Virus record (IMG/VR): IMGVR_UViG_3300020172_003900
Location: 1-52,423 of that record
DNA: 52,423 nt
Source of the DNA: a virus
Taxonomy: Duplodnaviria > Caudoviricetes
Direction: 5' to 3' (one strand)
The position numbers and the translations under genes are program-made. This document shows positions 28,491 through 44,461 of this stretch, piece by piece; the stretch's first letter is position 1, and the number at the start of each line of letters is the position of its first letter. The notes below the pieces were generated by a model. It did not search any database and was not told the origin of the DNA. It saw only the letters and a program-made list of their open reading frames with translations.

Positions 28491-28576
28491 CGGAAGATGT
28501 TGGGCTCGAACCAACGCGACCTTTCAGTCCTACCTGTTTAGCAAACAGGCCCCTTCACCAACTTGGGTAATCTTCC
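28491..28576 (-). tRNA. tRNA-Ser(GCT)
   Basis: Anticodon arm CCTGT-TTGCTAA-ACAGG; long variable arm. Confidence 0.92.
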
Positions 28577-28581
28577 AATAG

Positions 28582-28655
28582 TAGTCCCTGAGGGATTCGA
28601 ACCCCCAACCTTTTCGTCCGTAGCGAAACGCTCTAATCCGTTGAGCTAAGGGACT
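28582..28655 (-). tRNA. tRNA-Arg(ACG)
   Basis: TTTCG-CTACGGA-CGAAA. Confidence 0.92.
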
Positions 28656-28675
28656 AAAAAACGTTCAGCTCTTTT

Positions 28676-28860
28676 GAGTTGTCCCCAATACCGAATTTCA
28701 GCGGCAACCCACTTTCGTGAGGGGTTAGAACTAGTGTGTTAACTTACTCCTGCCACTGGTACACTAACCAACCGACTTAGACTCAAGTAATCGGCTCAGG
28801 TCCCTGTGGTAGTGACACCACTTCTCATCATACGGGAGCATATTAGGCGGGAACTACCTC
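28676..28860 (-). ncRNA. Putative structured ncRNA (~185 nt), unassigned
   Basis: GC-rich tRNA spacer; closing stems, several hairpins incl. CAC-GAAA-GTG, possible pseudoknot. Confidence 0.45.
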
Positions 28861-28894
28861 TTTTTTTATATTTCCGAAACACGGAAACCACGTG

Positions 28895-28982
28895 CGGTGA
28901 GAGTAGGATTCGAACCCACGGTACCCTTTCAGGTACTTCGGTTTTCAAGACCGACGCAATCGACCAACTCTGCCATCTCACC
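28895..28982 (-). tRNA. tRNA-Ser(TGA)
   Basis: TCGGT-CTTGAAA-ACCGA; long variable arm. Confidence 0.92.
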
Positions 28983-29015
28983 GTATAACCGACCTAGCTC
29001 GGTAAACACATCGGA

Positions 29016-29092
29016 TGGGGTAACTAACGGGAATCGAACCCGTGACACCTTGAACCACAATCAAGTGCTCTACCTACTGAGCTATAGCCACC
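29016..29092 (-). tRNA. tRNA-His(GTG)
   Basis: CTTGA-TTGTGGT-TCAAG; encoded G-1, C73 and CCA. Confidence 0.92.
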
Positions 29093-29099
29093 ATATTAG

Positions 29100-29232
29100 T
29101 AGTCAAGGTCGGACTCGAACCGAATACCGTTCAAGACGGAATAGACAACCTTACAACTTCTCGCGTCCAAAGGGTTATGGACCGTGGTGTCTTCAGGACT
29201 CGGGTACCATCCCTCATTACGCCCACTTGACT
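29100..29232 (-). ncRNA. Oversized tRNA-like RNA (133 nt) without a canonical anticodon arm
   Basis: Acceptor AGTCAAG/CTTGACT plus T-arm TCGG-TTCGAGT-CCGA, ~100-nt multi-hairpin interior. Confidence 0.6.
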
Positions 29233-29235
29233 AAT

Positions 29236-29303
29236 TACCCCACTTCACCAGATTAACGGACTGGCTGCCATATGGGAGTGGGGGTTTCCCGTTAATTCGG
29301 GAC
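29236..29303 (-). ncRNA. Putative small pseudoknotted RNA after tRNA-Phe
   Basis: TCCCG/CGGGA, CCCCACT/AGTGGGG, CCAG/CTGG stems; TTAACGG complementary to CCGTTAA. Confidence 0.35.
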
Positions 29304-29307
29304 TCCG

Positions 29308-29380
29308 TGGAACGGGGCGGAATCGAACCGCCGACACCTTGCTCTTCAGGCAAGTGCTCTACCAACTGAGCTACCGTTCC
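29308..29380 (-). tRNA. tRNA-Phe(GAA)
   Basis: CTTGC-CTGAAGA-GCAAG. Confidence 0.92.
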
Positions 29381-29384
29381 AAGT

Positions 29385-29636
29385 ATGATAATGATGGAGT
29401 ACCCGTCTCGCTCCAATCTTAACGGCTTCTTCTGAGTTTTATCAGTGCACTGGCCGAGGGTGCTGAATTCCGATTCCACTCTGGATTGTCGACATCCATT
29501 GAATGGGGAAAACCATTATCAATATTATTAAAATAAATCACTTTCGCCCCCTGTATATAGTTTACAGTAAACTATCTACTGTAAACCTTGGATGCTTAAG
29601 GTCATCCTTAACTATTAAGGGAGCCACCCGTGATTT
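29385..29636 (-). ncRNA. One or two putative structured ncRNAs, unassigned
   Basis: Domain 29535-29636 closed by AAATCAC/GTGATTT with long internal hairpins; domain 29385-29521 closed by TGATAATG/CATTATCA. Confidence 0.35.
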
Positions 29637-29648
29637 AATATTTTTTTC

Positions 29649-29803
29649 TTCAAAGAACTCACTTTTCAGGGGGAGTAGGTCACCATCCTACCAACTACCC
29701 ACTCCCCCGTCCAACTACAATACAAATGTACTGCGATTTTTTTAATTAACCAAACATTTTTTATTCACTTCCGAGTTTGGACGTGTTTTACTTCCGAGTT
29801 TGG
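29649..29803 (-). promoter_or_regulatory. Internal promoter of tRNA array 1 with boxA-like element and upstream 14-bp direct repeat
   Basis: TTTG-N20-TACATTTG (29723-29730); GTTCTTTGAA 29649-29658; CCAAACTCGGAAGT x2 at 29767-29780 and 29790-29803. Confidence 0.6.
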
Positions 29804-29812
29804 CATTTTTTG

Positions 29813-29885
29813 TAGTTCCTGTAGGAATCGAACCTACGACATCTTGTATGTAAAACAAGCGCTCTCCCAACTGAGCTAAGGAACT
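29813..29885 (-). tRNA. tRNA-Val(TAC)
   Basis: CTTGT-TTTACAT-ACAAG. Confidence 0.92.
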
Positions 29886-29890
29886 GTAAG

Positions 29891-29962
29891 TACCGATGGG
29901 TGGTATCGAACCACCGACAACTTCCGTATGAAAGAAGTGCTCTACCACTGAGCTACATCGGT
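29891..29962 (-). tRNA. tRNA(CAT), probably elongator Met
   Basis: CTTCT-TTCATAC-GGAAG; paired 1-72; Met versus Ile2 not certain. Confidence 0.8.
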
Positions 29963-29968
29963 ATTTTG

Positions 29969-30039
29969 TTGTCCCTGAAGGATTCGAACCTCCACTAGGT
30001 GGACCAAAACCACCTGTCCTGCCATTAGACCAAAGGACA
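29969..30039 (-). tRNA. tRNA-Gln(TTG)
   Basis: GGTGG-TTTTGGT-CCACC; U1-A72. Confidence 0.92.
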
Positions 30040-30046
30040 ATTTAAG

Positions 30047-30127
30047 TGGGAGTGGAGGGATTCGAACCCCCAATGTCATAAGACCACTGATTTACAGTCA
30101 GCTAAGCAACCGTTGCTCAACACTCCC
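30047..30127 (-). tRNA. tRNA-Tyr(GTA)
   Basis: CTGA-CTGTAAA-TCAG; long variable arm. Confidence 0.9.
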
Positions 30128-30131
30128 AATT

Positions 30132-30258
30132 TAGGAAAACAGAAGATGGTCGAGTGGACATCTGTTTTTACGATTAGCATTACTTGGGTGAATACCTGCC
30201 AACTCCGATTGTACTAGTCAGTATTCACTCTCGAACTATCAGTACAATCATTCCCTAA
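30132..30258 (-). ncRNA. Putative three-hairpin RNA with loop-loop pairings
   Basis: Stems GATTGTACT/AGTACAATC and AAAACAGA/TCTGTTTT; loop GTGAATAC complementary to loop GTATTCAC. Confidence 0.5.
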
Positions 30259-30275
30259 TCAACCTAATTTTTTTG

Positions 30276-30347
30276 CGGCCAGGGAGAATTACGATATCTC
30301 GACCTATCGCTTAACAGGCGATTGCTCTTCCTCTGAGCTACCTGGCC
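30276..30347 (-). tRNA. tRNA-Asn(GTT), atypical T-arm
   Basis: ATCGC-CTGTTAA-GCGAT; T-loop ATCGTAA. Confidence 0.85.
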
Positions 30348-30886
30348 AATTTTTTACTTATTGAGTAACCATTATGTTCTAAAATTTTAATACACCACAT
30401 TAATAATTCGTCAGTTGTTAAGTCACCTTTCATATTGTTAACAGTCGGAGTTAAAATCCCCAAATTTTCAAGGGAGTTATTCCCCCCTCTACTAACAGGT
30501 ATTATGTGGTCAAAATGATATTCGTCTTTAAATAAGTTAATATCAATTCCCGTCAAATAACATTTAGCATCCTCACCAAATTTTTCAATAACCGTCTCCC
30601 AAGTAAATGTAGTTTCAAAGTCTTTATTAATTTTACCCTGAACGGAATTATCACGTTTATTAAATTTTCGAACACATTCTTTTTTATACCTATTTTTTCT
30701 GTATTTATAAGTTTCTAATTTTTTTAGAATAATGTTTTCTCTTCGTTTTTTAGTTCTATCCTTAACTTTTTCTTTTTGACCTACACCACAATAATATGAA
30801 ATTGTTGATTTAGAACAATTTAGTATTTCCTGTATTTGTTTGTAAGTTTTACCTTCTTCTCTAAGTTGTAATATTTTTTCTTTCAT
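30338..30886 (-). CDS. HNH endonuclease with N-terminal HTH (putative free-standing homing endonuclease)
   Basis: LREEGKTYKQIQEILNCSKSTISYY HTH; FDHIIPVSRGGNNSLENL...NNMK; stop lies inside the tRNA-Asn 5' end. Confidence 0.85.
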   Translation of the reverse strand: MKEKILQLREEGKTYKQIQEILNCSKSTISYYCGVGQKEKVKDRTKKRRENIILKKLETYKYRKNRYKKECVRKFNKRDNSVQGKINKDFETTFTWETVIEKFGEDAKCYLTGIDINLFKDEYHFDHIIPVSRGGNNSLENLGILTPTVNNMKGDLTTDELLMWCIKILEHNGYSISKKLAR

Positions 30887-30957
30887 AATACTCTTTATTA
30901 ATAAATATTACATTACTCTAAAAAGTTCGATACAATCATTAAAAATTCGAACTATTG

Positions 30958-31029
30958 CACGGGTGGAGAATTACGATATCCCGACACCTGGTTTTGGAGA
31001 CCAGTGCTCTGCCCCTGAGCTACACCCGT
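30958..31029 (-). tRNA. tRNA-Trp(CCA), atypical T-arm
   Basis: CTGGT-CTCCAAA-ACCAG; T-loop ATCGTAA. Confidence 0.85.
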
Positions 31030-31034
31030 ATTAG

Positions 31035-31108
31035 AGGTCAGAGTCGGATTCGAACCGACGAATACTTGTTTTGCAGACAAGCCCCTTAAACCACTTGGGT
31101 ATCTGACC
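31035..31108 (-). tRNA. tRNA-Cys(GCA)
   Basis: CTTGT-CTGCAAA-ACAAG; U73. Confidence 0.92.
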
Positions 31109-31112
31109 GTAG

Positions 31113-31187
31113 TGTCCCCGAAGAGATTCGAACTCTTGACCCCTCCATTAAAAGTGGAGTGCTCTAAACCAACTGAGCTACGAAGAC
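31113..31187 (-). tRNA. tRNA-Lys(TTT)
   Basis: CTCCA-CTTTTAA-TGGAG. Confidence 0.92.
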
Positions 31188-31193
31188 ATTAAG

Positions 31194-31267
31194 TTGTCAC
31201 AGATGGGCTCGAACCATCGACCTTTCGCGTATCAGGCGAACGCTCTAACCAACTGAGCTATGTGACA
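31194..31267 (-). tRNA. tRNA-Ile(GAT)
   Basis: TTCGC-CTGATAC-GCGAA. Confidence 0.92.
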
Positions 31268-31335
31268 ATGTTTAGTTTTACAAAACAAATATAACCATTT
31301 TTTGGTATATAACGCTCTATTTTACTAATTTTTTG

Positions 31336-31407
31336 TCGGGGTAGCAGGAGTCGAACCTGCCGCCTCTTGGTCCCAAACCAAGCGTCTCTCCCCGAGACTA
31401 TACCCCG
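31336..31407 (-). tRNA. tRNA-Pro(TGG)
   Basis: CTTGG-TTTGGGA-CCAAG; C1-G72. Confidence 0.9.
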
Positions 31408-31425
31408 ATTATTTACTTACCAATA

Positions 31426-31436
31426 TTTCAAAGAAC
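31426..31436 (-). promoter_or_regulatory. boxA-like element
   Basis: GTTCTTTGAAA between terminator and first tRNA; 19 nt identical to 38357-38375. Confidence 0.6.
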
Positions 31437-31440
31437 ACAT

Positions 31441-31476
31441 AAAACAAAAAACCCCGAACCTAAGTTGGTTCGGGGT
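31441..31476 (-). terminator. Attenuator terminator of tRNA array 1
   Basis: ACCCCGAACC-AACTTA-GGTTCGGGGT-TTTTTGTTTT. Confidence 0.85.
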
Positions 31477-31512
31477 CTCGATGTTTGTTATTTGTCTAAC
31501 TTAATCTTATCC

Positions 31513-31623
31513 TTAATTTGTTTCATCAACAACCGAACCAATAAATGCCATACGCGGATACCAACAGTTACTAAACTGTTTTACCACGTTAATAATCGAC
31601 ATATGTTGTTTATTAGTTCTCAT
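31513..31623 (-). CDS. Leader peptide 1 (36 aa) MRTNKQHMSIINVVKQFSNCWYPRMAFIGSVVDETN
   Basis: TACCTTTG promoter box at 31662-31669; 3' part contains antiterminator TTGGTTCGG; codons match array-1 anticodons. Confidence 0.75.
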   Translation of the reverse strand: MRTNKQHMSIINVVKQFSNCWYPRMAFIGSVVDETN

Positions 31624-31707
31624 TATTTCTAATTTTATTGTTGTTTTACTTATAACTATTACAAAGGTACAAAAAGTTTCCTGATTGTCAAATAATTTTC
31701 TGTTTTT

Positions 31708-33306
31708 TTATGCTCCGCCAGTATTTTTCTTATCAATATCCTTTGCGGCGTTCATTGCGTAGGATTTAGTTTGACCCTTAACATACTTACCAACCGCCTT
31801 TTTATTTGTTAGTTTAATATCAACACCTGTTTTCTCTTTAATCTTATCCGCTAAAGCATCCTCACCTTTATTTTTAGCAATATTCATCATCTCTTGAACT
31901 GTTTTATTACTACTTTGTTTTTTAATAAAATTATCGGTAAGTGTCTCAATTTCTTTTTTATGATTATTAATTGTTTGAACAACTTTAAGTTCTTCAGGAT
32001 TAAATGGTATTTTATTAATTGTTTTTTCGGCAATTTTTTCAAAGGTTGCCGAACCAATACCTTTAAGTGCAGGTATTTCGGATGCAAATGGTAAAACACT
32101 AAATGCCATTGTAAGACCAGCTTCGGCGTTTTTACCTTCTGAGAAATATATTGCAGAATCGGCAATTCCAAGACCTGCCGCTAATAAAGGTCCAACAAAT
32201 GGTATAAACATACTTGCAATTTGTAACCCTTCAATAACTTTGTGACCTTCTTCTGCAGTTAATCCTCCCCCAACACAAGTAGGTTTTGCTCTATCGTAAA
32301 CTCCCTTAATTTGGGAAGCATTTACCGAGTCGTAAAAAGACGCCATAAAGTTATAAACCCCTTCAGGGAAATATACGGTTGCATTATTATTTGTACTGGC
32401 AACTACGTCTTGTAATAATTTACCCCATTGAAAATAAAAATCGGATAGAATAAAGTTGGCATATAATGGAGTAATTTTATTTTTATTGTGTGTCCATATT
32501 GCAGATTGTGGATTATTTATTAAATCTTTTATTGAGGTACCATAAGATGTTAATTTTTTACTTACCATTTTAACATTACCTAAACTAGACAAACCTATTT
32601 GTAAACATTCTGTATTATTCCACCCAACTCTATTTGTTTGGATATCGGTTAAATATTTTATACTAAAAAGAGCGGCTAAGTTATAGTGTTGGTTAGGACT
32701 ACTTGGAGTTGGGAAAGTATATCCTCCAAAACTATCGACAATAAGTCCTTGTGATTTTAAGAATTGATAATTTTTTTGATATTCTGTACTTGTTTCATAA
32801 CAAGCCTTTTTACCTTTAGAATCAACATACTGACCGTTTTTAGAACAAGCCTCACTTCTTTCTTTCTTTTCTTTTTGCTCTTGCCAAGTTGCTAAGTTTT
32901 CCCAATAATATTGGTCTCCATATGATTTACCACATAAATTTTTAGATAGATAACCTGACAAAACTTTTGTTTTATCGTAAAACCAAGAATTTGCAGAACT
33001 ATTCCAAAACTTACCAGCGTTTTGACCGTCACAATAATAAACAGTTGATGGTTTTATTTTTTTACCAACAACTCTATCAACAGATGCGGTAAATGATGCT
33101 CCTCCTGTGGATTTATCTTTCTTATCTCCATATTGGTGAGCGGTGAATCTTGTTCCTTTAGGTATTTTAATTTGACCACCAAGCATAGTATTTTTAGTCA
33201 AAATTCTATCTTTAACTAACGTATACGTTTGATTAACAGGCTTATTAGTTTTAGTTGCCTGTTCAATAATACTTTTAAATTGATTTTCGGTAATGATTAC
33301 TCTCAC
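31708..33306 (-). CDS. Putative internal virion protein with C-terminal hydrophobic hairpin (PT-TG-like)
   Basis: GTG start; MRVIITENQFKSIIEQ propeptide-like; IASMFIPFVGPLLAAGLGIADSAIYFSEG. Confidence 0.55.
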   Translation of the reverse strand: MRVIITENQFKSIIEQATKTNKPVNQTYTLVKDRILTKNTMLGGQIKIPKGTRFTAHQYGDKKDKSTGGASFTASVDRVVGKKIKPSTVYYCDGQNAGKFWNSSANSWFYDKTKVLSGYLSKNLCGKSYGDQYYWENLATWQEQKEKKERSEACSKNGQYVDSKGKKACYETSTEYQKNYQFLKSQGLIVDSFGGYTFPTPSSPNQHYNLAALFSIKYLTDIQTNRVGWNNTECLQIGLSSLGNVKMVSKKLTSYGTSIKDLINNPQSAIWTHNKNKITPLYANFILSDFYFQWGKLLQDVVASTNNNATVYFPEGVYNFMASFYDSVNASQIKGVYDRAKPTCVGGGLTAEEGHKVIEGLQIASMFIPFVGPLLAAGLGIADSAIYFSEGKNAEAGLTMAFSVLPFASEIPALKGIGSATFEKIAEKTINKIPFNPEELKVVQTINNHKKEIETLTDNFIKKQSSNKTVQEMMNIAKNKGEDALADKIKEKTGVDIKLTNKKAVGKYVKGQTKSYAMNAAKDIDKKNTGGA

Positions 33307-33329
33307 ATATATAAATACTTTAAGAGTAT

Positions 33330-33860
33330 AAAAAAAGAAAGGTTCTAAATCATCCCCACGCCATTTTGGGAGAACCTTTCAAAGTTAAGTATATCTTGGC
33401 GACATAATATCCCACACCATTATGACTAAGATTTGTTAGCCCATAGTAACCATCCTTGGTGGGTTTCTACTCTCACACTCCGTCCATATTTACTAACCTA
33501 ATCGATGTGTCATAGATTTTCAGATATTGCGTTCAGTGTTACCCTCAGGACATCTTCACCCTACCCCCAAAGTTACGTGGCGAGTCTCACTCGGAAGCTG
33601 AGTGTGTATTGTAGAATTGTCCAGTATTTCTACAACTTGTGGATTGTATTACGACTAATTAAAGCCCCCTTACCCCCTCTATCCATAATGGGGAATCCTA
33701 TCTAACCTGTGTAGCCTCCCCCATAGCCTTGAAGCCTTCAAGTCAGGTTCACACACCATAACAGTCGGATATCTCTGTTAATCGTGGGGTCTTAAATAGA
33801 GTATGACGTATGCTCGTTTTATAGTTGTTTCCATCCGCAAACTCACGGTTCTCTCTATTT
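33330..33860 (-). ncRNA. Large stand-alone ncRNA (~520 nt), class unassigned
   Basis: Own promoter TTTG-N19-TACATTTG (33867-33897) and terminator GAAAGGTTCT/AGAACCTTTC plus U7; GC-rich, no sense ORF of 60 aa or more, many hairpins. Confidence 0.6.
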
Positions 33861-33900
33861 CTTTTACAAATGTATGGATTTTTTTTTAATCTTCAAACAA

Positions 33901-34485
33901 TTAAGATAAAAAAGACAAAACTTTTTCTTTAATTCCAGATTGTTTTAACCCTTCATTCGCGCTTGGAGTTAAGACAAAATTTTCTAATCCCCAATCGTGA
34001 GTAAACTTCATACCATAATACATACCTGTTTTACCCATATCAAGGTCATCTATTGAAACCCAATGAGTAACTTCGGGATGGTCGTGTAAGTACTGTTTAA
34101 TTTCAATTGTACGAGTTTGTTGTAAATCCCAATCTCTAGACCAAATAAAGTTATTTCCGTGTACCGTACATTCACTTAAATTAGGTGTAAAGGCGATTGG
34201 TTTTTTTGAAATACCTTTTGACTCATAGTACTCACCCATTTCCTCAACATTTGCCCATCTTTTCCAATCCGAAGATACAACAATCTCAGCACCAGTTTCT
34301 TCTAAAATTTTATTTAAAACTTTAACCGCCTTTTCGTTGAAGTTGTCAAATCTATACTCGATTGGCATACCTTTAACATCCATAGTAAGTTTATTACCTT
34401 CCCATTTTTGTCTTTTCTTGTAACGACCTCCCCACTCTGTGGATAAACAGATTACTCCGTCGTGGTCTAAAAATATAACTTTCAT
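33901..34485 (-). CDS. HAD-family phosphatase (Swiss-Army-Knife RNA-repair-like)
   Basis: IFLDHDGV, IVVSSDW, WVSIDD. Confidence 0.82.
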   Translation of the reverse strand: MKVIFLDHDGVICLSTEWGGRYKKRQKWEGNKLTMDVKGMPIEYRFDNFNEKAVKVLNKILEETGAEIVVSSDWKRWANVEEMGEYYESKGISKKPIAFTPNLSECTVHGNNFIWSRDWDLQQTRTIEIKQYLHDHPEVTHWVSIDDLDMGKTGMYYGMKFTHDWGLENFVLTPSANEGLKQSGIKEKVLSFLS

Positions 34486-34486
34486 A

Positions 34487-34654
34487 TTATTTTTTAATTA
34501 TATAACCTAAATTTTCAAAAATTAAAATCATCCCTACAAATGATAAGATAATACAAATTATCTTCATAAACAAATCTAAAGGTGTTTTTTTACTCCAAAT
34601 AACACCAAAAAAGAAAAACAATAGTGTTGCGATAATATTGAATATTAGTTGCAT
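34487..34654 (-). CDS. 55-aa two-TM membrane protein (not in track)
   Basis: MQLIFNIIATLLFFFFGVIWSKK...LGYIIKK; fills the gap between neighbours. Confidence 0.5.
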   Translation of the reverse strand: MQLIFNIIATLLFFFFGVIWSKKTPLDLFMKIICIILSFVGMILIFENLGYIIKK

Positions 34655-34659
34655 AGTTT

Positions 34660-35613
34660 TTATTTATTTATTAGGTCAAAGATACTAATTTTTTTGTAAG
34701 GTTTGTTAGGGATTATTGTAATTTTTTTAATTTTTTTCGATAATTCTACAGGGTCTTGGTTTGTTTCAAGATATTCTTTAATTAATGATTGTAATGGTTT
34801 TGCCAAACTATTATCAATATTAGTGTGAGTACAATTTGAAACTGCGTAATTTACAACTTTTGTCTTTTCTTTATTGATTGGGTAAGCGTTACCTCCTGAT
34901 AATAATTCTTCTTGGAATTCATCAATATCTCTAACATAATAATTTAAACACACTTTAACGTTAGATGGTATCATACAATTTAAAACTAACGTTTCTTGAA
35001 CTCTTCTAGTTTTATCCTTATACTGAGGGTCAATTGTTATTAACAAATCTACGTAAATATTTAAACTTTTAAGTTTTTCACAAGCTTTAATTAGATTATA
35101 AGAGCCTAAACTATGACCTAATAACACTACTTTACCGTTAGGATTTAATTGTTTGAAATAATAAACCTCTTGTATAATGTCTTCAGTTGTCAAAAGTAAA
35201 TTGTGTGTACCAGTGTAGGTAGATACGTGGGTACTATCATTAAAATATTTTTTTTCGATTTCACCTAAACCTGGAATATCTCTACTATCGTGATTTTCAA
35301 CCATTGTTTTATTTTTACTTAAAACATCTTCGTGAGGACTAACAAAAGTTCCTTGGGCAATAATAACTAAAGTGTTTTCACTCTTTTTGAGATAATTCAT
35401 ATCATACGGAGTTAGTTCAACTTTATTACTATAATAAGTTAACTTCATTTCGTGTGCGGTTATTAAAAACCCTAAAATCCCTAACAAAAATAATGGGATT
35501 GATTTTAATTTTAATTTGGTAACTTTAATTAAAAACACAAATAACACTAATGTTGCACATAGGTTAAATATTAATTGTGAGTGTACTAAGAAAGATGATA
35601 TAATTTCTGTCAT
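34660..35613 (-). CDS. Membrane-anchored alpha/beta hydrolase
   Basis: Two N-terminal TMs; VVLLGHSLG; ITIDP; THTNID. Confidence 0.7.
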   Translation of the reverse strand: MTEIISSFLVHSQLIFNLCATLVLFVFLIKVTKLKLKSIPLFLLGILGFLITAHEMKLTYYSNKVELTPYDMNYLKKSENTLVIIAQGTFVSPHEDVLSKNKTMVENHDSRDIPGLGEIEKKYFNDSTHVSTYTGTHNLLLTTEDIIQEVYYFKQLNPNGKVVLLGHSLGSYNLIKACEKLKSLNIYVDLLITIDPQYKDKTRRVQETLVLNCMIPSNVKVCLNYYVRDIDEFQEELLSGGNAYPINKEKTKVVNYAVSNCTHTNIDNSLAKPLQSLIKEYLETNQDPVELSKKIKKITIIPNKPYKKISIFDLINK

Positions 35614-37452: not shown

Positions 37453-37461
37453 TTATTATTG

Positions 37462-37534: not shown

Positions 37535-37619
37535 GTTTAGATGAGTCGTGGACTTGTGTACCACTTTTGTCCCCCTTTAAATTATTCACTAACCCCAGGT
37601 GTAGGGAAACCCATCTTAG

Positions 37620-37694
37620 TTGCGGGGGCGGGATTCGAACCCACGTAGTTTGGCTTATGAGACCAAGCTGGAACCAACTCCAGTCCACCCCGCG
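37620..37694 (-). tRNA. tRNA-fMet-like (CAT), copy 2
   Basis: C1:A72 mismatch; TTGGT-CTCATAA-GCCAA. Confidence 0.8.
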
Positions 37695-37798
37695 ATATAT
37701 CTTTGTCATCACTTCGGCCACATCGTGAAAGCCGCCCCTCACGCGTTGTTTAAAGGAATCCGATTGCGGCCTCATCCTACCGAGTTATGATAACTTTG

Positions 37799-37871
37799 TT
37801 GCGAGAGGAGGATTCGAACCTCCGACCTCAAGGTTATGAGCCTTGCGAGCTACCACTGCTACTATCTCGCG
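37799..37871 (-). tRNA. tRNA-fMet(CAT)
   Basis: C1:A72 mismatch; CAAGG-CTCATAA-CCTTG. Confidence 0.88.
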
Positions 37872-37877
37872 ATGTTG

Positions 37878-37951
37878 TGGAGATGGTGAGAATCGAACTC
37901 ACCTCAGATTGATTGCAAATCAATCTCGTCGGCCTTGAGACATACACCCCC
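37878..37951 (-). tRNA. tRNA-Ala(TGC)
   Basis: ATTGA-TTTGCAA-TCAAT; G3-U70. Confidence 0.85.
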
Positions 37952-37957
37952 ATCATT

Positions 37958-38239
37958 TTAAACGTTGTACTTATCTCCTAATTTATTAATTAGGTCAAGT
38001 TCTTCGTTACTCATTCTATGATAAGAATTGGCAATTCTATCACAAAACATTCTGTGGTCTTTTTCCATCCAACCCATTTTAGTGTCTGACACTAAAATAG
38101 ATGTACTTGAGATATGACCGTCCTCGACCAAAGCTATAATAAGCTCTTTAAGTTCTCGAGGTGAACAAGCGGTTAAAAAGTCGTCAACACTAACTTCAAT
38201 TTCCGCCTCAACTTCCACATAATCCGAAAATTCTGGCAT
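37958..38239 (-). CDS. Hypothetical protein
   Basis: 93-aa ORF between tRNAs. Confidence 0.6.
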   Translation of the reverse strand: MPEFSDYVEVEAEIEVSVDDFLTACSPRELKELIIALVEDGHISSTSILVSDTKMGWMEKDHRMFCDRIANSYHRMSNEELDLINKLGDKYNV

Positions 38240-38259
38240 AATTATTTTTTTTTAGTTTG

Positions 38260-38331
38260 TAGTCCGTGCGGGAATCGAACCCGCCTTTTATCCGTGAAAG
38301 GGATATGTCCTAACCGATAGACGAACGGACC
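38260..38331 (-). tRNA. tRNA-Glu(TTC)
   Basis: TATCC-CTTTCAC-GGATA. Confidence 0.92.
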
Positions 38332-38346
38332 ATTTAAAATCTTTAA

Positions 38347-38377
38347 CAAAGATACAACCAATATTTCAAAGAACAAA
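38347..38377 (-). promoter_or_regulatory. boxA-like element overlapping a consensus Bacteroidota promoter
   Basis: TTTG-N19-TATCTTTG with GTTCTTTGAAA (38364-38374) inside. Confidence 0.55.
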
Positions 38378-38391
38378 ATTTAAAACTCATT

Positions 38392-38426
38392 AAAAACAAA
38401 AAACCCATCTCTTTTGGAGATGGGTT
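38392..38426 (-). terminator. Attenuator terminator of tRNA array 2
   Basis: AACCCATCTC-CAAAA-GAGATGGGTT-TTTTGTTTTT. Confidence 0.85.
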
Positions 38427-38450
38427 CAGTGAATTCATAGTATAGGAATA

Positions 38451-38525
38451 TCACACCATCTCCATTGGAGTAGTCGCTTCAGTTCTATCTGTCCCACCTA
38501 TTAGTATGATATGTAATGTTTTCAT
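38451..38525 (-). CDS. Leader peptide 2 (24 aa) MKTLHIILIGGTDRTEATTPMEMV
   Basis: Last codons contain antiterminator TGGAGATGG; codons match array-2 anticodons. Confidence 0.75.
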   Translation of the reverse strand: MKTLHIILIGGTDRTEATTPMEMV

Positions 38526-38586
38526 TTGCAGTTTTATTCGTTTTTTATTAAATATACCTATATAACGTAAAAAGTCAAATTTTATT

Positions 38587-40404
38587 TTAAAAATTAAATC
38601 CAAGTTTACCTTTTAATGGTTTAAGTTTAGTTTTATTATTAGTTTTATTTGGTTTTTCTATTGGTTTTGTTTCATCTCGTCTATTAATTATAACATCCTT
38701 ATTATTACCAACATCTACCTTTCTAACAATTTTATTATTAGAACTAAGTAAAGATAACACGTTTTGTCTAACATTATTATTTGAAATGTTAGTCTCATCC
38801 ATTTTAAATTCTACGATAGTCTCAGGTTTTAAAACTTTTTCCTCAACAGGTTTAATATATTTTTTAATCTCAGGGTTTTTAGAATCTAAAACTCTAACTG
38901 AACTTGTTTTGTCTAATTTTTTAATTACTTCACTAATATTATGACTAACAATATCTTTGTTTTTTATAATATTTTTATTATTTGTTTCATTATTTAATAA
39001 TTTTACATATGTAAAATCTAAACAATTATAAATTGGTTCGAAATGTGAAGTTTTTAATTCTTCTAATGGTCCAAAATATTTTTTATTTCTGGACAATTGA
39101 ACATATTCTTTTCTTAAATCTGATTTAAAATTTGTTTTAGGGTCACTAGTTAAACCTTTACTGTGAAGTCTCCTATAAAATAAAACAGATTTAGTTAAAT
39201 TTATTTTAACTCCATTTTTTTGTATTCTACCCATAAAGTCAGAGTCCGCGGCGCACCTCCATCCTTCAAATCCATTTAAGTTAAGAAAAATTTCTTTATG
39301 TATACCAAAAACCCCTTCACCCCATAAATTATTATCTTTTTTTGATTTAATATTTTCTAAATTAAAATCACCTGAAAAATTATAAAATTTTGGTTTAACA
39401 CATTCAAATTCGGATAATTTACTAATTATTTCATTAATCATAGTTTTATCCATAATATCATCTGAATCAAAAAATAATAAGTTTTTTGATTTTGAATATA
39501 ATGTTAAAGTATTTTTAATGACATAAGGTCCTACATTTTCTTTGAAATAATAAAATTTAATATGAGGATTAAACTTATTTTGATTAACATATTTTAAAGT
39601 ATTTCTACAACTATCTATTCCCACCAAAACTTCAAAACTTATACTATCACCGCAAGACAAAATAACTGAATCTAAACATTCTTTTAAAAACTCAACATTA
39701 TCGTATGTCGGAACAATAATACTAATTTTCTTATCGGTTAAAACATCATTTGTTAATACTGTTTGTTTTAAGTCTGATTTATATTCATTATTATAAATTG
39801 ATTCGTTTATCATTTGTTGGGTAACAAACCCTGAATTATGTCTTACACAAATAATATCTATATTATTTTCAATTGCATATTTACCTACCCAAACATCTGC
39901 CATATTAGGTTCCCTAAAATAATCCATATTTACTTTAAATAAATCAGTATGAAAAGCCATAACACCAGTCCCTCCAAATTGGACTTTAGTGTCTTTATTT
40001 AAAAGTTGGTTAAAATGAAATAATTGATTTTTATCCGAATAATAACTTTTTATGGGAGGGTTGTTAAAATTTCTTCCGTGAATTGTTATAAATGATTTAC
40101 GTTTATATTCCTCAATTTTACCTATCATATATTCAGAATAATTTTCTGGATATATTAAATCATCATCAATAGTGAAAAAGTACCCTTCAGAATTTATTAA
40201 ATTGTAAAATTTATAGGCGTCTCCTTTATCATTATCACTAATAAATAAATTAATTTTTTTATCAAATAATTCCACAGGAATTTCATCATAATCATTTAAA
40301 GTCAAATTGATTATGTCGCATTGATTATATATCGAATTAATAGTATTAATTAAAGTATCTGCTCTTTTGTAGCTCGCTATGTTATATATTACTTTGTCTT
40401 TCAT
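38587..40404 (-). CDS. Double GT-A (family 2-like) glycosyltransferase with low-complexity C-terminal tail
   Basis: FTIDDDLIYP; ISIIVPTYD...FFDSDD; start at MKDKV coupled to upstream stop. Confidence 0.82.
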   Translation of the reverse strand: MKDKVIYNIASYKRADTLINTINSIYNQCDIINLTLNDYDEIPVELFDKKINLFISDNDKGDAYKFYNLINSEGYFFTIDDDLIYPENYSEYMIGKIEEYKRKSFITIHGRNFNNPPIKSYYSDKNQLFHFNQLLNKDTKVQFGGTGVMAFHTDLFKVNMDYFREPNMADVWVGKYAIENNIDIICVRHNSGFVTQQMINESIYNNEYKSDLKQTVLTNDVLTDKKISIIVPTYDNVEFLKECLDSVILSCGDSISFEVLVGIDSCRNTLKYVNQNKFNPHIKFYYFKENVGPYVIKNTLTLYSKSKNLLFFDSDDIMDKTMINEIISKLSEFECVKPKFYNFSGDFNLENIKSKKDNNLWGEGVFGIHKEIFLNLNGFEGWRCAADSDFMGRIQKNGVKINLTKSVLFYRRLHSKGLTSDPKTNFKSDLRKEYVQLSRNKKYFGPLEELKTSHFEPIYNCLDFTYVKLLNNETNNKNIIKNKDIVSHNISEVIKKLDKTSSVRVLDSKNPEIKKYIKPVEEKVLKPETIVEFKMDETNISNNNVRQNVLSLLSSNNKIVRKVDVGNNKDVIINRRDETKPIEKPNKTNNKTKLKPLKGKLGFNF

Positions 40405-41165
40405 TGAAAATACTCTGGGTACCAATTTTTAAATTTTTCAACTCTCCCTAAATTCGGGGTTCTTTGTTTTATTTCAGGATTTGTTTCATAGAAAAAAATA
40501 TCCCATAATGAGCCAATGTCTATTAAAAAATTATCATTACCATAATGAGGAAATAGTTCATCTATAAATACGTTTGTCGCCATAGACGATGAGAATAAAA
40601 CTATATTATCTTTAGTTAATACTTTTTTAATTTCACTTAAAATTTCCTCTTTTTTCTCATAACAATTCAAGGTAGGAACTTCAATAAACTCCTTAACCTT
40701 TAAAAACTTAATTTCTGATAGGTATTTTGGACCAACAATAATTAAATTATTTTCATTTAGAGTTGATACAAATTTGTTAAATGTATTATGGTCATCCCTC
40801 ATACTATGTTGTAAGAAATCTGAATATTGATAAACTCCATTCATCAAATCATTCTCGACTAACAATTTAGTATATTCTTTAAGGTTATCGTCATCAATCC
40901 ATTCCCCCAAATATTGTATAAAGTATTTTTTACCATCACTATGGTTTAAACTTTCATTAAGTTCCTTCCCCATTTTTGGAAAATAATCGTGATTATCACA
41001 GTTTTTAACAGAATTAATTTCAACACCGTCAAGTTGTTTAATTCCACATATTAATTCCCCATCATTAAATCTTGAATATGAGAAGTACTCTTTGTTAATT
41101 ATTCTATTCGTAAAATAATCCATATCATAATTAACGTATTTATTTTTTTTAAAATCCTCTATCAT
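40401..41165 (-). CDS. GT-D-fold-like glycosyltransferase
   Basis: FSYSRFNDGE, LIIVG, LIDIGSLWD. Confidence 0.6.
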   Translation of the reverse strand: MIEDFKKNKYVNYDMDYFTNRIINKEYFSYSRFNDGELICGIKQLDGVEINSVKNCDNHDYFPKMGKELNESLNHSDGKKYFIQYLGEWIDDDNLKEYTKLLVENDLMNGVYQYSDFLQHSMRDDHNTFNKFVSTLNENNLIIVGPKYLSEIKFLKVKEFIEVPTLNCYEKKEEILSEIKKVLTKDNIVLFSSSMATNVFIDELFPHYGNDNFLIDIGSLWDIFFYETNPEIKQRTPNLGRVEKFKNWYPEYFQ

Positions 41166-41869
41166 TATTTAGCTATTAATTTTTCAGTTTTTCTTAACTC
41201 AGGAAGTAGTTTTGATTCGTGGTCTCCGTGAATTGTTAAGTTATTTATTACGTGATACATATTTAAATCTAAATTATATAATCGTTTACTAATTTGTTCT
41301 CCCACACCACTACTCAAATTAGGGTTTTTATCCCATCTTGATGGGTTTATTGGTAACATTTTAAACTCTAAAGATTTAAAAAAAGAATATTTACAAATAA
41401 ACACCAATTCACACCATTGTGTTTTATAATATTCATCATATTCTATAGGATATACTCCTGTCCATTTAGGTTGGTTTCTCTGACTGTCAATCATTAAAGT
41501 TCCTAATGAAATTTTAGTATCGTCAGGGATATTTTCAAAAATTCTAACACTTTCCTCAAAGAAATTTTCTTTTAATCTTAAATCATCTTGTAGGTAAACA
41601 TAATAATCGGCGTTAATTTTTCCGCAAAATTTAAAAGTGTCGTCAATAACTTTCCATAATTTTTTCAATCCATTGTTTTTTATGTATTTTATATACTTAA
41701 CATCATAATCCCCCAAATCATAAATGTCATTACTCGCATCATCAAAGACTACAACATATATTTTATAATTTTTATTTTTAAAAATGTCATCTAATAACAT
41801 CTTTAACATTTCTTGACGATTATGTGTGGTTATTACAACACAAAAATCATATTTCTCATCATTATTCAT
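41165..41869 (-). CDS. Glycosyltransferase family 2
   Basis: VVITTHNR, VFDDAS, YVYLQDD. Confidence 0.82.
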   Translation of the reverse strand: MNNDEKYDFCVVITTHNRQEMLKMLLDDIFKNKNYKIYVVVFDDASNDIYDLGDYDVKYIKYIKNNGLKKLWKVIDDTFKFCGKINADYYVYLQDDLRLKENFFEESVRIFENIPDDTKISLGTLMIDSQRNQPKWTGVYPIEYDEYYKTQWCELVFICKYSFFKSLEFKMLPINPSRWDKNPNLSSGVGEQISKRLYNLDLNMYHVINNLTIHGDHESKLLPELRKTEKLIAK

Positions 41870-42354
41870 TAATATAATATTGTAAATGTTTTATCATCAC
41901 AGTCTATTGAAAAAGTGATTCTTTTATCAAATTTTTCAGACAAAAATAAAGACATATTTTTATCATTTTCTCTATTAGTATCATCAATAATTATTGGTAT
42001 ATTTTTATTAAATATATCATAATGATTTATGATATTAATTCTATTTTCACCAATAGGGCCATCTATTAATAATAAATCGTATTCTTTAGGTAATTTATCT
42101 TTTAATATCTCAACATCATACCAACCATCAACTAACGGAGCGTGGATATAAGTTGATTCAGGTACTAAATCAACCCATTTAATATCGTGTTCTACACTAT
42201 AAACATTATAAAATTTTACTAATTCTTTAGTACCACCCCCACTACCTAATTCAAGTATTGTACTCCCTTTTGGTAAGTTAGACAATATCCAATCAAAGAG
42301 CTCTTTTGAGATTGACCATCCTCCGAATGATTCGTAGTTTACATCACTATTCAT
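41869..42354 (-). CDS. Class I SAM-dependent methyltransferase
   Basis: ILELGSGGGT, SVEHD, DLLLIDGP, IIDD. Confidence 0.8.
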   Translation of the reverse strand: MNSDVNYESFGGWSISKELFDWILSNLPKGSTILELGSGGGTKELVKFYNVYSVEHDIKWVDLVPESTYIHAPLVDGWYDVEILKDKLPKEYDLLLIDGPIGENRINIINHYDIFNKNIPIIIDDTNRENDKNMSLFLSEKFDKRITFSIDCDDKTFTILY

Positions 42355-42407
42355 TTAATTCTAATTCTTACTATAATTATAACTATAATTATTTGTAAAT
42401 CTATAAT

Positions 42408-43238
42408 ATGAAAAAAACAGTAGGAGTAGTAGGTAATGGATTTGTAGGTGAAAGTATTTCATTTGCTTTTAGTCCAACCTCAGAAGTTAAAATTTACGAC
42501 ATTAATCCATTAAAAAGTCTAAACACTTTAGATGAAGTTATGAAACAGGAGTTCATTTTTATTTGTTTACCAACACCAATGTTAAGTGATGGTACCCAAG
42601 ACATCTCATTTATTGAAGACTTTTTTGGTGATGTAATTTACAATGAAAATACCGTCTTCATTATCAAATCAACAGTACTACCAGGTACTACCGAGTCTTT
42701 AATTAAAAAGTACGGTCATAACATCGTATTTTCACCTGAGTTTTTAACTGAAAGGACCGCTAAGTTAGATATGTTAACACAAGCTAGAATTATTTTAGGA
42801 GGTGAACCATCTTTAACTAAACGAGTTGAGGAATTATTCAATGACCGTTTTATGAATAGACACATTATTCATACTGATTCTAAAACTGCTGAGTTTGTGA
42901 AATATATGAATAATACTTTTTTTGCAGCTAAAGTTAGTTTAATGAATGAATATTATAGACTTTCTAAATTAATTGGTGTAGATTGGGAAAAGGCGTTATA
43001 CGGATTTGCATCTGATGGTAGAATTGGAGATTCTCACTTACACGTTCCAGGTCCTGACGGTAAATTAGGATTTGGTGGTACTTGTTTTCCAAAAGACATA
43101 AATGCGTTAATATCGATGGCTTCTGAAGTAGGTTGTAATATGAATGTGTTAGAAGCCGCTTGGAAGACTAATTTAGAAGTTAGACCTGAACAAGATTGGA
43201 AAGAGTTAAAAGGTAGGGCAGTTTCTGAAAAAGAATAA
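42408..43238 (+). CDS. UDP-glucose/GDP-mannose 6-dehydrogenase (short form)
   Basis: GNGFVG, CLPTP, KSTVLPG, SPEFL, GFGGTCFPKD. Confidence 0.88.
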   Translation: MKKTVGVVGNGFVGESISFAFSPTSEVKIYDINPLKSLNTLDEVMKQEFIFICLPTPMLSDGTQDISFIEDFFGDVIYNENTVFIIKSTVLPGTTESLIKKYGHNIVFSPEFLTERTAKLDMLTQARIILGGEPSLTKRVEELFNDRFMNRHIIHTDSKTAEFVKYMNNTFFAAKVSLMNEYYRLSKLIGVDWEKALYGFASDGRIGDSHLHVPGPDGKLGFGGTCFPKDINALISMASEVGCNMNVLEAAWKTNLEVRPEQDWKELKGRAVSEKE

Positions 43239-43262
43239 TATTTATAAATAAAGAAAATCGTG

Positions 43263-43370
43263 ATGAATATGAAATCATTAAATATGGGTCTTTTAGTACA
43301 GGATTATATTACGTCGGCACTTTTATGTGTTCGAGGAGTGACCTTACGCGATTTAGATAAACAAAAATAA
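43263..43370 (+). CDS. Leader peptide 3 (35 aa, 7 Leu) MNMKSLNMGLLVQDYITSALLCVRGVTLRDLDKQK
   Basis: ATATTTAT motif upstream; contains antiterminator GTGACCTT; precedes HNH and two tRNA-Leu. Confidence 0.65.
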   Translation: MNMKSLNMGLLVQDYITSALLCVRGVTLRDLDKQK

Positions 43371-43399
43371 ATTAAACAGAAAAACTAAAACGTATAAAG

Positions 43400-43433
43400 A
43401 AAGGTCACAAGAAATTGTGACCTTTTTTGTTTT
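43400..43433 (+). terminator. Attenuator terminator of the tRNA-Leu locus
   Basis: AAAGGTCACAA-GAAA-TTGTGACCTTT-TTTGTTTT. Confidence 0.85.
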
Positions 43434-43464
43434 ATTGGAAAAAAATTATTAAATTTGCCAAGAT

Positions 43465-43968
43465 ATGGAAAGAGTGTTAGTATTAAATGCAGATTATACC
43501 CCGTTAAACGTGACATCCTCACAAAAAGGATTTAAACTCGTATTCAAGGGTAAAGCGGAAATCGTTAAGAGTTCCGAAAGTCCTATTATTGCAGGATACC
43601 AAAACTATGTGCGTCCATTAATCATCCGTCTATTCAAATACGTTAAATTTAGAGTTAGAAATATTCGGGTTAACAGACATAGGGTGTATAGAAGAGATGG
43701 TGGGGAATGTGTTTATTGTGGGTCAACAAAACAATTGACGTTAGACCACGTTATACCTAAATCTAAAGGAGGTTCTAATGAATGGACTAATCTTGTTACT
43801 TGTTGCCATAAGTGTAACCTCCATAAGGCAGATAGAACACCTCAAGAAGCTGGAATGGTACTACGTAAAAAACCTTATGAACCTTCATTGTTTATTGACG
43901 TGGTTAACAATTCGTTGGAAAGAATTTGGGAAGATTATAAAAATTCTTTCGGGGTGTTGACAGTTTAA
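43465..43968 (+). CDS. HNH endonuclease (McrA-like)
   Basis: VLVLNADY, RDGGECVYCG, TLDHVIPKSKGG, WTNLVTCCHKCN. Confidence 0.9.
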   Translation: MERVLVLNADYTPLNVTSSQKGFKLVFKGKAEIVKSSESPIIAGYQNYVRPLIIRLFKYVKFRVRNIRVNRHRVYRRDGGECVYCGSTKQLTLDHVIPKSKGGSNEWTNLVTCCHKCNLHKADRTPQEAGMVLRKKPYEPSLFIDVVNNSLERIWEDYKNSFGVLTV

Positions 43969-43979
43969 AAAATACGCCG

Positions 43980-44002
43980 TACATTTGTACTGTTCTTTGA
44001 AA
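43980..44002 (+). promoter_or_regulatory. Promoter -7 box plus boxA-like element for tRNA-Leu
   Basis: TACATTTG 43980-43987; GTTCTTTGAAA 43992-44002. Confidence 0.6.
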
Positions 44003-44010
44003 TGAAAATT

Positions 44011-44096
44011 GCTCGGGTGGTGGAATAGGTAGACACGCCAGACTTAAAATCTTGTGGGCCGTAAGGCCCGTGCGGGTTCGATTCCCGCCCCGAGTA
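44011..44096 (+). tRNA. tRNA-Leu(TAA)
   Basis: CCAGA-CTTAAAA-TCTTG; long variable arm; A73. Confidence 0.92.
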
Positions 44097-44099
44097 CTA

Positions 44100-44368
44100 T
44101 GAGTTAGAGATACTCAGAAAGATTGGTCACATTCTTTAAAAAAGTGATGGTAGTAAAAAAATCCTCGACCTTAATGGGGTTTCGATTCGGATAAAACGGT
44201 AGCAAGGTTCAGCACCGCCGACGTATTGAGCTGACGGGTTTTATGTGGTAAGACACTAATGAAAAAGACTTATTGAATGAGGTAACTATATAGGTTATCA
44301 AACAACTTTAAGGGATATGTTTCTTCAAAGAGAAAAGAAACCGTTAAAATCTACTCTCTGTAATCTCA
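44100..44368 (+). ncRNA. Putative ~270-nt structured RNA between the Leu tRNAs
   Basis: Ends TGAGTTAGAGA / TCTCTGTAATCTCA are complementary with bulges; no ORF in track. Confidence 0.35.
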
Positions 44369-44381
44369 GGAGGGGCCAAAT

Positions 44382-44461
44382 ATCAGAGTGGTGGAATTGG
44401 TAGACACGTATGCCTTAGGAGCATATGCTACGGCGTGAGGGTTCGAGTCCCTCCTCTGATA
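44382..44461 (+). tRNA. tRNA-Leu(TAG)
   Basis: TATGC-CTTAGGA-GCATA; A73. Confidence 0.9.

Follow-up and report, generated by a model that had tools for sequence, protein, structure and literature searches.

The phage genome record IMGVR_UViG_3300020172_003900 carries three tRNA loci, each preceded by a short open reading frame (ORF) and a strong intrinsic terminator. The stretch analysed here, which we call the window, is the entire available record (52,423 bp, 31.6% G+C). Related records with CheckV completeness values of 2-53% are 5-159 kb long, from which genomes near 300 kb follow, and the window is thus a piece of a phage genome of roughly 300 kb, whose host probably belongs to the Bacteroidota. 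The sequence is present in DNA runs of eight studies, mostly of freshwater or lake samples and one of marine plankton. A first-pass annotation of the window had interpreted the three short ORFs as leader peptides of transcription attenuators, with codons that mirror the anticodons of their own tRNA arrays, and had stated that the arrays divide up the genetic code. We analysed the three leader-terminator-array modules in the window together with their counterparts in related phages.

Leader codons and competing hairpins at three tRNA loci

ARAGORN identified 27 tRNAs in the three loci of the window. Array 1 (28490-31407, minus strand) comprises Pro, Ile, Lys, Cys, a Trp-like tRNA, Asn, Tyr, Gln, Met, Val, Phe, His, Ser, Arg and Ser, 14 of which were called by ARAGORN. 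Array 2 (35689-38331, minus) comprises Glu, Ala, Met, a tRNA with an odd CAT loop, Gly, Gly, Asp, Arg(tct), Thr, Met and Ile(tat), and array 3 (44011-44462, plus) consists of Leu(taa) and Leu(tag). When wobble rules are applied to the ARAGORN tRNAs, ATG is the only codon that the three arrays share, and only CGG and TGG are left unread. The Trp-like tRNA (30958-31029, minus) was not called by ARAGORN even with a lowered threshold; it was recognised by its Rfam tRNA score of 47 bits and has an unusual T arm. Its anticodon loop, CTCCAAA, marks it as Trp-like, so that TGG is then covered, and close relatives have a regular tRNA-Trp at the same position. The division of the genetic code among the arrays is thus as had been described.

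All three annotated leader ORFs were recovered with the same positions and lengths. Leader 1 (31513-31623, minus; 36 aa, MRTNKQHMSIINVVKQFSNCWYPRMAFIGSVVDETN) has homologous leaders in relatives, leader 2 (38451-38525, minus; 24 aa, MKTLHIILIGGTDRTEATTPMEMV) was found by ORF scan, and leader 3 (43263-43370, plus; 35 aa with seven Leu codons) has a homologue in the related records G002 and G003. The coverage of anticodons by window leaders 1 and 2 was counted with strict wobble and without the start codon. Leader 1 contains cognate codons for 14 of the 14 array-1 anticodons, or 15 of 15 when the Trp-like tRNA is included, as a TGG codon is present, and 25 of its 35 codons are cognate versus an expected fraction of 0.48. 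Leader 2 covers 9 of the 9 array-2 anticodons, with 13 cognate codons out of 23 versus an expected fraction of 0.32. Full coverage by chance, with codons drawn from the long ORFs of the phage itself, has a probability of 1.2e-4 for leader 1 and 2.6e-3 for leader 2. Sliding windows over real genes never attained full coverage for array 1 (0 of 11736) and did so for array 2 in 50 of 12204 cases. Among the 436 ORFs of 20-60 aa in the window, a single other ORF (53 aa) attains 14/14 for array 1, and 9/9 for array 2 is reached only by the ORF that contains leader 2. With loose wobble, codons 4-25 of leader 1 are 22 successive cognates (the Trp-like tRNA being counted) and codons 9-19 of leader 2 are all cognate. 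Leu codons, which belong to array 3, are absent from leader 1 (0/35). Leader 3 has 7 Leu codons out of 34 under loose wobble versus an expected fraction of 0.08 (P = 0.019). The claimed mirroring of each array by its leader therefore stood for modules 1 and 2 and was weak for module 3, where P ranges from 0.019 to 0.089 depending on the wobble rule.

The terminators between these leaders and the arrays are the strongest ones in a scan of 28-45 kb, and all three lie just upstream of a tRNA locus on the matching strand. Terminator 1 (31448-31479, minus) has a 13-bp stem with a T-run and a hairpin energy of -22.1 kcal/mol, terminator 2 (38401-38427, minus) has 11 pairs and -15.9 kcal/mol, and terminator 3 (43397-43428, plus) has 14 pairs and -15.5 kcal/mol. 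Elsewhere in the window, terminators follow long ORFs of 135-674 aa, except for two that follow ORFs of 54 and 70 aa, and across the whole window none of these other terminators has tRNAs downstream.

Near its 3′ end, each of the three leaders contains a strand complementary to that part of the 5′ arm of its own terminator which lies next to the loop. These antiterminator strands are TTGGTTCGG in module 1 (9 nt, 31533-31541, minus), TGGAGATGG in module 2 (9 nt, 38456-38464, minus, ending 5 nt short of the stop-codon end) and GTGACCTT in module 3 (8 nt, 43338-43345, plus), in agreement with the 8-9 nt given in the first-pass annotation. In modules 1 and 2 the complementarity continues beyond the arm for two bases of the loop. 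It exceeded that of mononucleotide shuffles of the same leader in every case (P = 0.007, 0.003 and 0.007 for modules 1-3, with 300 shuffles each). When the RNA was folded up to the terminator loop, leaving the 3′ arm absent, the minimum-energy structure paired the 5′ arm with the leader strand in three of the three modules; in full-length folds the terminator forms, and in those of leaders 1 and 2 an early leader segment is predicted to pair with the antiterminator region. Antiterminator pairing excludes the terminator, and the geometry of the modules suggests that the choice between the two structures may depend on the position of the ribosome.

The modules also share elements with transcription units of the presumed host group. 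Most leaders, among them leaders 1 and 2 of the window, are preceded at 20-40 nt by a TTGAC-N-TAnnTTT[GA] site, and we take the arrangement TTGAC...TAnnTTT[GA] to be the Bacteroidota promoter form. The promoter-like site is TTGACA-N16-TACCTTTG in module 1 (31662-31691, minus) and TTGACT-N16-TATATTTA in module 2 (38549-38578, minus), the latter being conserved upstream of type-2 leaders in relatives, and a pattern search found no clear promoter-like site upstream of leader 3. The boxA-like 12-mer GTTCTTTGAAAT has exactly three copies in the window, each of them ahead of a tRNA array. Modules 1 and 2 have the 17-mer GTTCTTTGAAATATTGG at 11-26 nt after the terminator, followed by the first tRNA. 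In module 1 it is an exact match at 31420-31436 (minus), and in module 2 the 17-mer (38358-38374) is embedded in a second promoter-like site, TTTG-N19-TATCTTTG (38347-38377, minus). Module 3 has the 12-mer only, after a promoter-like TTGACA-N17-TACATTTG at 43957-43987 (43957-44003 with the boxA-like element, plus). The layout of leader, terminator, boxA-like element and tRNAs that had been proposed for all three loci consequently applies to modules 1 and 2; in module 3 an HNH ORF and a promoter-like site intervene. Terminator 1 and tRNA-Pro are separated by 40 nt in which no TAnnTTTG site was found, and the proximal part of array 1 is therefore without an evident source of transcription except read-through.

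The 17-mer is identical to an element located 89-234 nt upstream of the 16S 5′-end site in 18 of the 120 cellular matches listed. The titles seen for the cellular matches near 16S are those of Bacteroidota, and a tRNA within 300 nt downstream was found in 0 of the 120 matches listed. This identity of sequence marks the boxA-like element as the rrn-leader box of the presumed host group, for which a Nus-type role in antitermination would be expected by analogy with E. coli. We rejected the idea that the motif is a mere promoter spacer, as it also occurs without a -7 box (in module 1 and in the Leu-first modules L123, L128 and L137) and in cellular rrn leaders.

Co-variation of leaders, arrays and terminators in related phages

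A megablast search of positions 28000-45000 against phage records returned tRNA-sized matches only and no close relative, and a distant blastn search yielded for modules 1 and 2 nothing beyond marginal matches of 30-40 nt. Of the flanking proteins, one of 612 aa gave only a weak match as an anchor, and one of 532 aa has one relative (L001, 54% identical) with no tRNA within 6 kb. Relatives were instead found by an exact scan of IMG/VR for the boxA-like 17-mer, which yielded at least 115 stretches, a sample that is thus ascertained through the motif. Among the 115 matches listed, 48 are followed by a tRNA on the same strand at no more than 400 nt from the 17-mer, and a strict hairpin finder placed a terminator just upstream of it in 34 of 117 contexts (the matches listed plus the two window modules). 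Larger stretches of 19 related IMG/VR records were then analysed with a rule by which the leader is the longest ORF that starts with ATG, has 18-60 codons and stops 5-50 nt short of a terminator with a same-strand tRNA within 900 nt. The rule yields 30 modules from the 19 records, in which a small ORF and a terminator precede the arrays as well; the stop codon lies 18-36 nt from the terminator in these relatives, and the leaders constitute three homologous peptide families.

Coverage of the own array is complete in many of the relatives (15/15 twice, 14/14, 13/13 twice, 9/9 twice and 8/8) and incomplete in others, such as L129-B (17/19), L122 (13/14) and type 3 (1/2). For permutation tests we used 25 unique leaders with complete arrays, after dropping duplicate peptides. 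The tests left out a 43-aa ORF of L131, which was judged not to be a leader, as well as the plus strand of L119, L125, the second module of L134 and L135, whose arrays lie less than 1.5 kb from the end of the stretch. Mean coverage of the own array was 0.92 versus 0.64 after permutation, and precision was 0.50 versus 0.31, values attained by none of 5000 permutations. The own pairing was likewise unmatched in 5000 permutations when the 12 type-1 modules were taken alone. The first-pass annotation had made its interpretation depend on leaders being conserved and on their codon content varying with the array anticodons in relatives, and both were found.

The correspondence follows the gain and loss of individual tRNAs. 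Within the type-1 modules, the leader holds a cognate codon in 112 of 117 cases in which the tRNA is present and in 56 of 123 cases in which it is absent. The Pro codons CCA or CCG occur in the leaders of all four arrays with tRNA-Pro and in none of the eight without it. In G004, where the array starts with Glu and lacks Pro and Asn, the leader reads CWYERM versus CWYPRM in the window and has no N or P. Two sister modules that differ by tRNA-Phe have two Phe codons and none, respectively, in their leaders, and a Leu-Arg-Leu array in a relative is preceded by the leader MRTTLLNTLLLDRQGLLRRLMP. The choice among synonymous codons also matches the isoacceptor held by the array, in 77 of 101 codons versus 51.6 expected and in 28 of 32 Arg codons, even though CGN is the rarer class in the phage. 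This tracking of isoacceptors places the signal at the level of codons and not of the peptide. Cognate codons are concentrated in the core of the leader upstream of the antiterminator strand (278/404), which is the zone where a stalled ribosome would leave that strand free; the fractions are 14/50 at codons 2-3 and 102/235 in the tail.

The competing pairing is specific to each module, too. In duplex-energy calculations over nine terminator sequence classes, each leader binds its own 5′ arm better than the arms of other classes. With one representative per class, the diagonal sum of own duplexes is -127.0 kcal/mol, which 0 of 20000 permutations attained. In 76 of 524 comparisons, a leader of another class equals or surpasses the own leader on a given arm, mainly with one class that has weak helices. 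The own duplex of module 3 amounts to -13.1 kcal/mol versus a mean of -5.9 kcal/mol for leaders of other classes on the same arm. In an alignment of 14 type-1 modules, nine antiterminator pairs are formed in 82.8% of the cells versus 18-49% when the partner is slid, and the terminator helix is paired in 100% of the cells. Changes on both sides are found at three of these pairs, most clearly at two (G-C/A-U), so that strand 1 shows compensatory changes in relatives; strand 2 changes together with its terminator in type-2 relatives. Co-variation of antiterminator and terminator, which had been put forward as a check on the annotation, was thus borne out by the better binding within classes than across them.

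Other elements accompany the arrays. An HNH endonuclease ORF lies between terminator 3 and the Leu tRNAs (43465-43968, plus; phrog_16726, E = 4.8e-39), with a -7-like TAAATTTG ahead of it (43450-43457, plus) and an equivalent in the same position in G002 and G003. A second HNH ORF is located inside array 1 and adjoins the Trp-like tRNA (30338-30886, minus). HNH ORFs are thus inserted in or beside the tRNA arrays, and gaps in the arrays of relatives may hold HNH-like insertions. Such insertions could drive the gain and loss of tRNAs that the leaders track. If the odd-loop tRNA is included, array 2 has three CAT tRNAs and array 1 has one, four in all for the window, and some of them may be initiator or Ile2 tRNAs. 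ARAGORN reports the odd-loop tRNA (37619-37694, minus) as 'tRNA-???', with CAT within an irregular anticodon loop (TCTCATAA), and relatives have a Met(cat) tRNA in its place.

The boxA-like element was also encountered in other settings. A one-mismatch copy of the 12-mer lies at 18934-18945 (plus), and about 700 nt downstream there is a terminator (19648-19674, plus) with a 54-aa ORF before it and no tRNA after it. In the other viral contigs L013, L027, L073, L077, L088, L089 and L115, a conserved non-tRNA sequence of about 50 nt comes after a promoter-like site and the 17-mer. In the Prevotella phage Lak-B5 (L259, 119.4-119.9 kb of the record), promoter-like TATCTTTG boxes and then a boxA-like TGTTCTTTGAAAT are found inside a tRNA array; no small ORF with a terminator was visible near this array in the 400 nt inspected out of 8 kb.

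Probable attenuation and its alternatives

Taken together, these observations make it likely that each module is a ribosome-mediated, or leader-peptide, transcription attenuator ahead of a phage tRNA array. The reading, already advanced in the first-pass annotation, is supported computationally for modules 1 and 2 by codon covariation and antiterminator covariation in relatives, and more weakly for module 3. A host-type promoter would start a transcript that first encodes a leader of 22-36 codons, whose central codons would serve as a near-complete inventory of what the tRNAs of the downstream array decode. An 8-9-nt strand in the last part of the leader could pair with the 5′ arm of the strong terminator located 20-35 nt downstream. 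If all listed codons are decoded fast, the translating ribosome would move over or onto this strand, the terminator hairpin would form and transcription would stop before the tRNAs. If any of the listed tRNAs is scarce, the ribosome would stall upstream, the free strand would pair with the 5′ arm and the polymerase would enter the array, where the rrn-type boxA would probably render it resistant to termination across the long untranslated region. The net effect would be a negative feedback, in which the array is made when one of the tRNAs that it supplies becomes limiting.

Such a switch implies that the leaders are translated and that stalling leads to read-through, both of which we infer. 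The trigger may be the depletion or cleavage of host tRNAs during infection, for example by anticodon nucleases. The sensor is better read as one of tRNA abundance than of amino acids, because an extra tRNA gene helps against the loss of a tRNA and not against amino-acid starvation. On balance, we lean slightly towards a still wider reading, in which the leaders are self-updating tables of contents: an anticodon checklist that evolves with the gain and loss of tRNAs, by which the phage detects the loss of any one species and switches on the array that replaces it. Such a loss may be caused by host anticodon nucleases, by phage-driven decay of host tRNAs or by the demand of AT-rich codon usage.

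Several observations weigh against attenuation or limit its reach. Under strict wobble, leader 3 has 5 Leu codons out of 34 (P = 0.089) and covers one of two anticodons, and its terminator is parted from the Leu tRNAs by the HNH gene, which is followed by a promoter-like site of its own. Coverage is incomplete in L127 (8/10), L124 (3/4), L123 (5/6) and L128 (4/5), and the 43-aa ORF before a lone Arg(tct) tRNA in L131 covers 0 of 1. The Leu/Arg leaders of L133 and L134 have merely a 6-nt complement, which is situated downstream of the stop codon. The covariation within type 1 is weak, given that 21-32 of 500 shuffles attain the observed values. All modules come from one group of related phages, and the counts are thus not independent events. 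Furthermore, the leaders mostly devote no more than one or two codons to a tRNA species. In classical leaders the regulatory codons come in runs, and the sensitivity of the phage leaders to a mild shortage may therefore be low.

Promoters that bypass the terminators constitute a further reservation. Roughly one module in two, module 2 of the window among them, has a second TAnnTTTG box right after the 17-mer, and promoter-like sites are located inside array 1 (29723-29753) and array 2 (37090-37120 and 36530-36560), all on the minus strand. The pattern has 20 occurrences in the window versus a mean of 7.1 in shuffles. The first-pass annotation had cautioned that promoters lie after terminators 2 and 3 and inside array 1, and to these the sites inside array 2 are now added. 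Because of such promoter-like sites after terminators and inside arrays, attenuation may control only part of array expression.

A contig from an RNA library matches the window perfectly at 38244-38435, from 8 nt upstream of terminator 2 through tRNA-Glu, and the coding bins beside it have a depth of about zero. Its weight against the attenuator reading or for it is limited, as this is a single contig with a depth of 4.4, DNA may be present in an RNA library and transcript ends are not visible in contigs. Stretches of the window that lack cover in the RNA run X20 were given no weight. Another region, 33444-33857, is spanned by contigs of a relative from an RNA library, with depths of 5-217. 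The corresponding region of the window (33330-33860, minus) is richer in G+C, has no ORF longer than 26 aa on that strand and follows a promoter-like site at 33867-33896; a 77%-identical segment is found inside tRNA array 1 of G002 and G003. The region has no Rfam match and, with a fold z-score of -0.23, no thermodynamic signal, and it may be an RNA of a new kind tied to tRNA arrays.

Among other explanations, a switch that senses decoding with a different kind of output or the opposite polarity appears unlikely. Here, a stall would favour termination or trigger cleavage or processing, or the leader RNA would act in trans, and released attenuator RNAs with functions in trans are known (PMC6614838). 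In most type-1 leaders, 14-20 nt separate the end of the antiterminator strand from the end of the stop codon, and in type 3 the distance is 25 nt. Given the size of the ribosomal footprint, the type-1 strand lies just outside a terminating ribosome, which would abut it and not cover it. At 14-20 nt, the off state of an attenuator therefore needs kinetic coupling or a 1:2-like pairing, and the latter, predicted in leader 1, is seen in one predicted fold only; the distance counts against attenuation and, like the predicted pairing, suits the alternative. In type 2 and several others, however, the strand reaches to within 3-8 nt of the stop-codon end, which fits the classical polarity, and the cognate codons lie upstream of the strand and not on it. 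Termination induced by stalling would also create a positive feedback that turns the array off exactly when its tRNAs are missing.

We regard as quite improbable the explanation that the leaders encode functional micro-peptides and that a fixed leaky terminator acts as a constant valve, the codon match being a local adaptation to the neighbouring tRNAs without any sensing. The three peptide families do keep certain residues (M[KR]T..KHM, QQ and CW[YF]; MK[TN]LHI.L.GG) even where arrays differ, and K, Q and T residues remain without a matching tRNA. The variation among homologous leaders nevertheless tracks the gain and loss of tRNAs and the synonymous choice tracks the isoacceptor, which is a signal at the codon level. 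Avoidance of the codons of other arrays, as with Leu in leader 1, argues in the same direction, as do the concentration of cognate codons in the zone that suits sensing and the variation of the 3′ ends of the peptides with the terminator sequence. Finally, the notion that the terminators are ordinary gene ends closing upstream units, with chance or unrelated ORFs, arrays on their own promoters and coincidental codon match and complementarity, is strongly disfavoured and hardly credible: it could draw on the promoter-like sites after terminators 2 and 3 and inside arrays 1 and 2 and on the abundance of small ORFs in AT-rich DNA (the 436 of the window), but most leaders have a promoter-like site of their own between the upstream gene and the ORF, no such site separates terminator 1 from tRNA-Pro, chance is rejected by the coverage statistics and permutation tests, modules and peptides are conserved in 19 related records, and the other terminators of the window follow long ORFs and have no tRNAs behind them.

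Comparison with known regulatory systems

Phage tRNA clusters have been discussed as counter-measures to defences that target tRNAs (PMC10264068). The sets described there are, like the arrays of the window, large phage-encoded tRNA sets that replace host tRNAs; the passages of PMC10264068 at hand deal with changes in tRNA sequence and not with the control of transcription, and they mention no regulatory leader. A full-text literature search, with subscription journals mostly outside its reach, returned no case of leader-peptide attenuation that controls a tRNA operon or a phage tRNA array. We set aside PMC3082878 as a precedent, since the passage in question concerns the promoter of a tRNA operon and not an attenuator.

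If the attenuator reading is true, the modules would represent the first tRNA operons known to be under leader-peptide attenuation. They would bear on the questions of how phages control large tRNA sets and why they carry them, as the tRNA supply itself would be sensed and held steady during infection. A textbook mechanism would be extended to a new class of target, in the form of a natural multi-input sensor of decoding capacity. Read-through of a module should then report which tRNA is missing, providing a handle on whether phage tRNAs answer the depletion of tRNAs by host defences. The tight co-evolution of leader and array is also a rare case of a regulatory logic that is readable from sequence alone.

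Three groups of known systems share features with the modules. The boxA/Nus antitermination of rrn operons shares the 17-mer, identical in Bacteroidota rrn leaders, and its place before long untranslated RNA genes. It differs in that the phage element is located ahead of tRNA arrays and downstream of an attenuator, where its binding of NusB/NusE is putative. Attenuators of pheST and other aminoacyl-tRNA synthetase genes and T-box leaders have in common with the modules that genes of translation supply are controlled through the state of tRNAs. The pheST attenuator senses one amino acid and controls a protein gene, and T-box RNAs bind uncharged tRNA directly and free of the ribosome, by means of a specifier loop and the T-box sequence. 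Neither a T-box nor any other leader or riboswitch family of Rfam was found in 28000-45000 at E values up to 1; a Termite-leu match over terminator 3 (23.7 bits versus a gathering score of 51, E = 0.26) was set aside.

The closest likeness is to the attenuators of amino-acid operons. The ilvGMEDA, ilvBN and thr operons are controlled by multivalent leader-peptide attenuators, and trp, his, leu and phe are likewise controlled by leader peptides. The phage modules share with them a promoter, a short and presumably translated leader with many regulatory codons and an antiterminator that competes with an intrinsic terminator, as well as the multivalent design by which more than one tRNA species would be sensed at once. 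Unlike in these operons, the regulated products are tRNAs and not enzymes, and the leader lists as many as 15-19 tRNA species, most of them with one or two codons each, instead of runs of codons for one to three amino acids. The phage modules have their antiterminator strand within the leader ORF, immediately ahead of the stop codon, and the leader changes with the gain and loss of tRNA genes. The class of mechanism is thus a known one, and what is new, as far as we found, is its tRNA target and the design of the leader as a checklist with one codon per tRNA.

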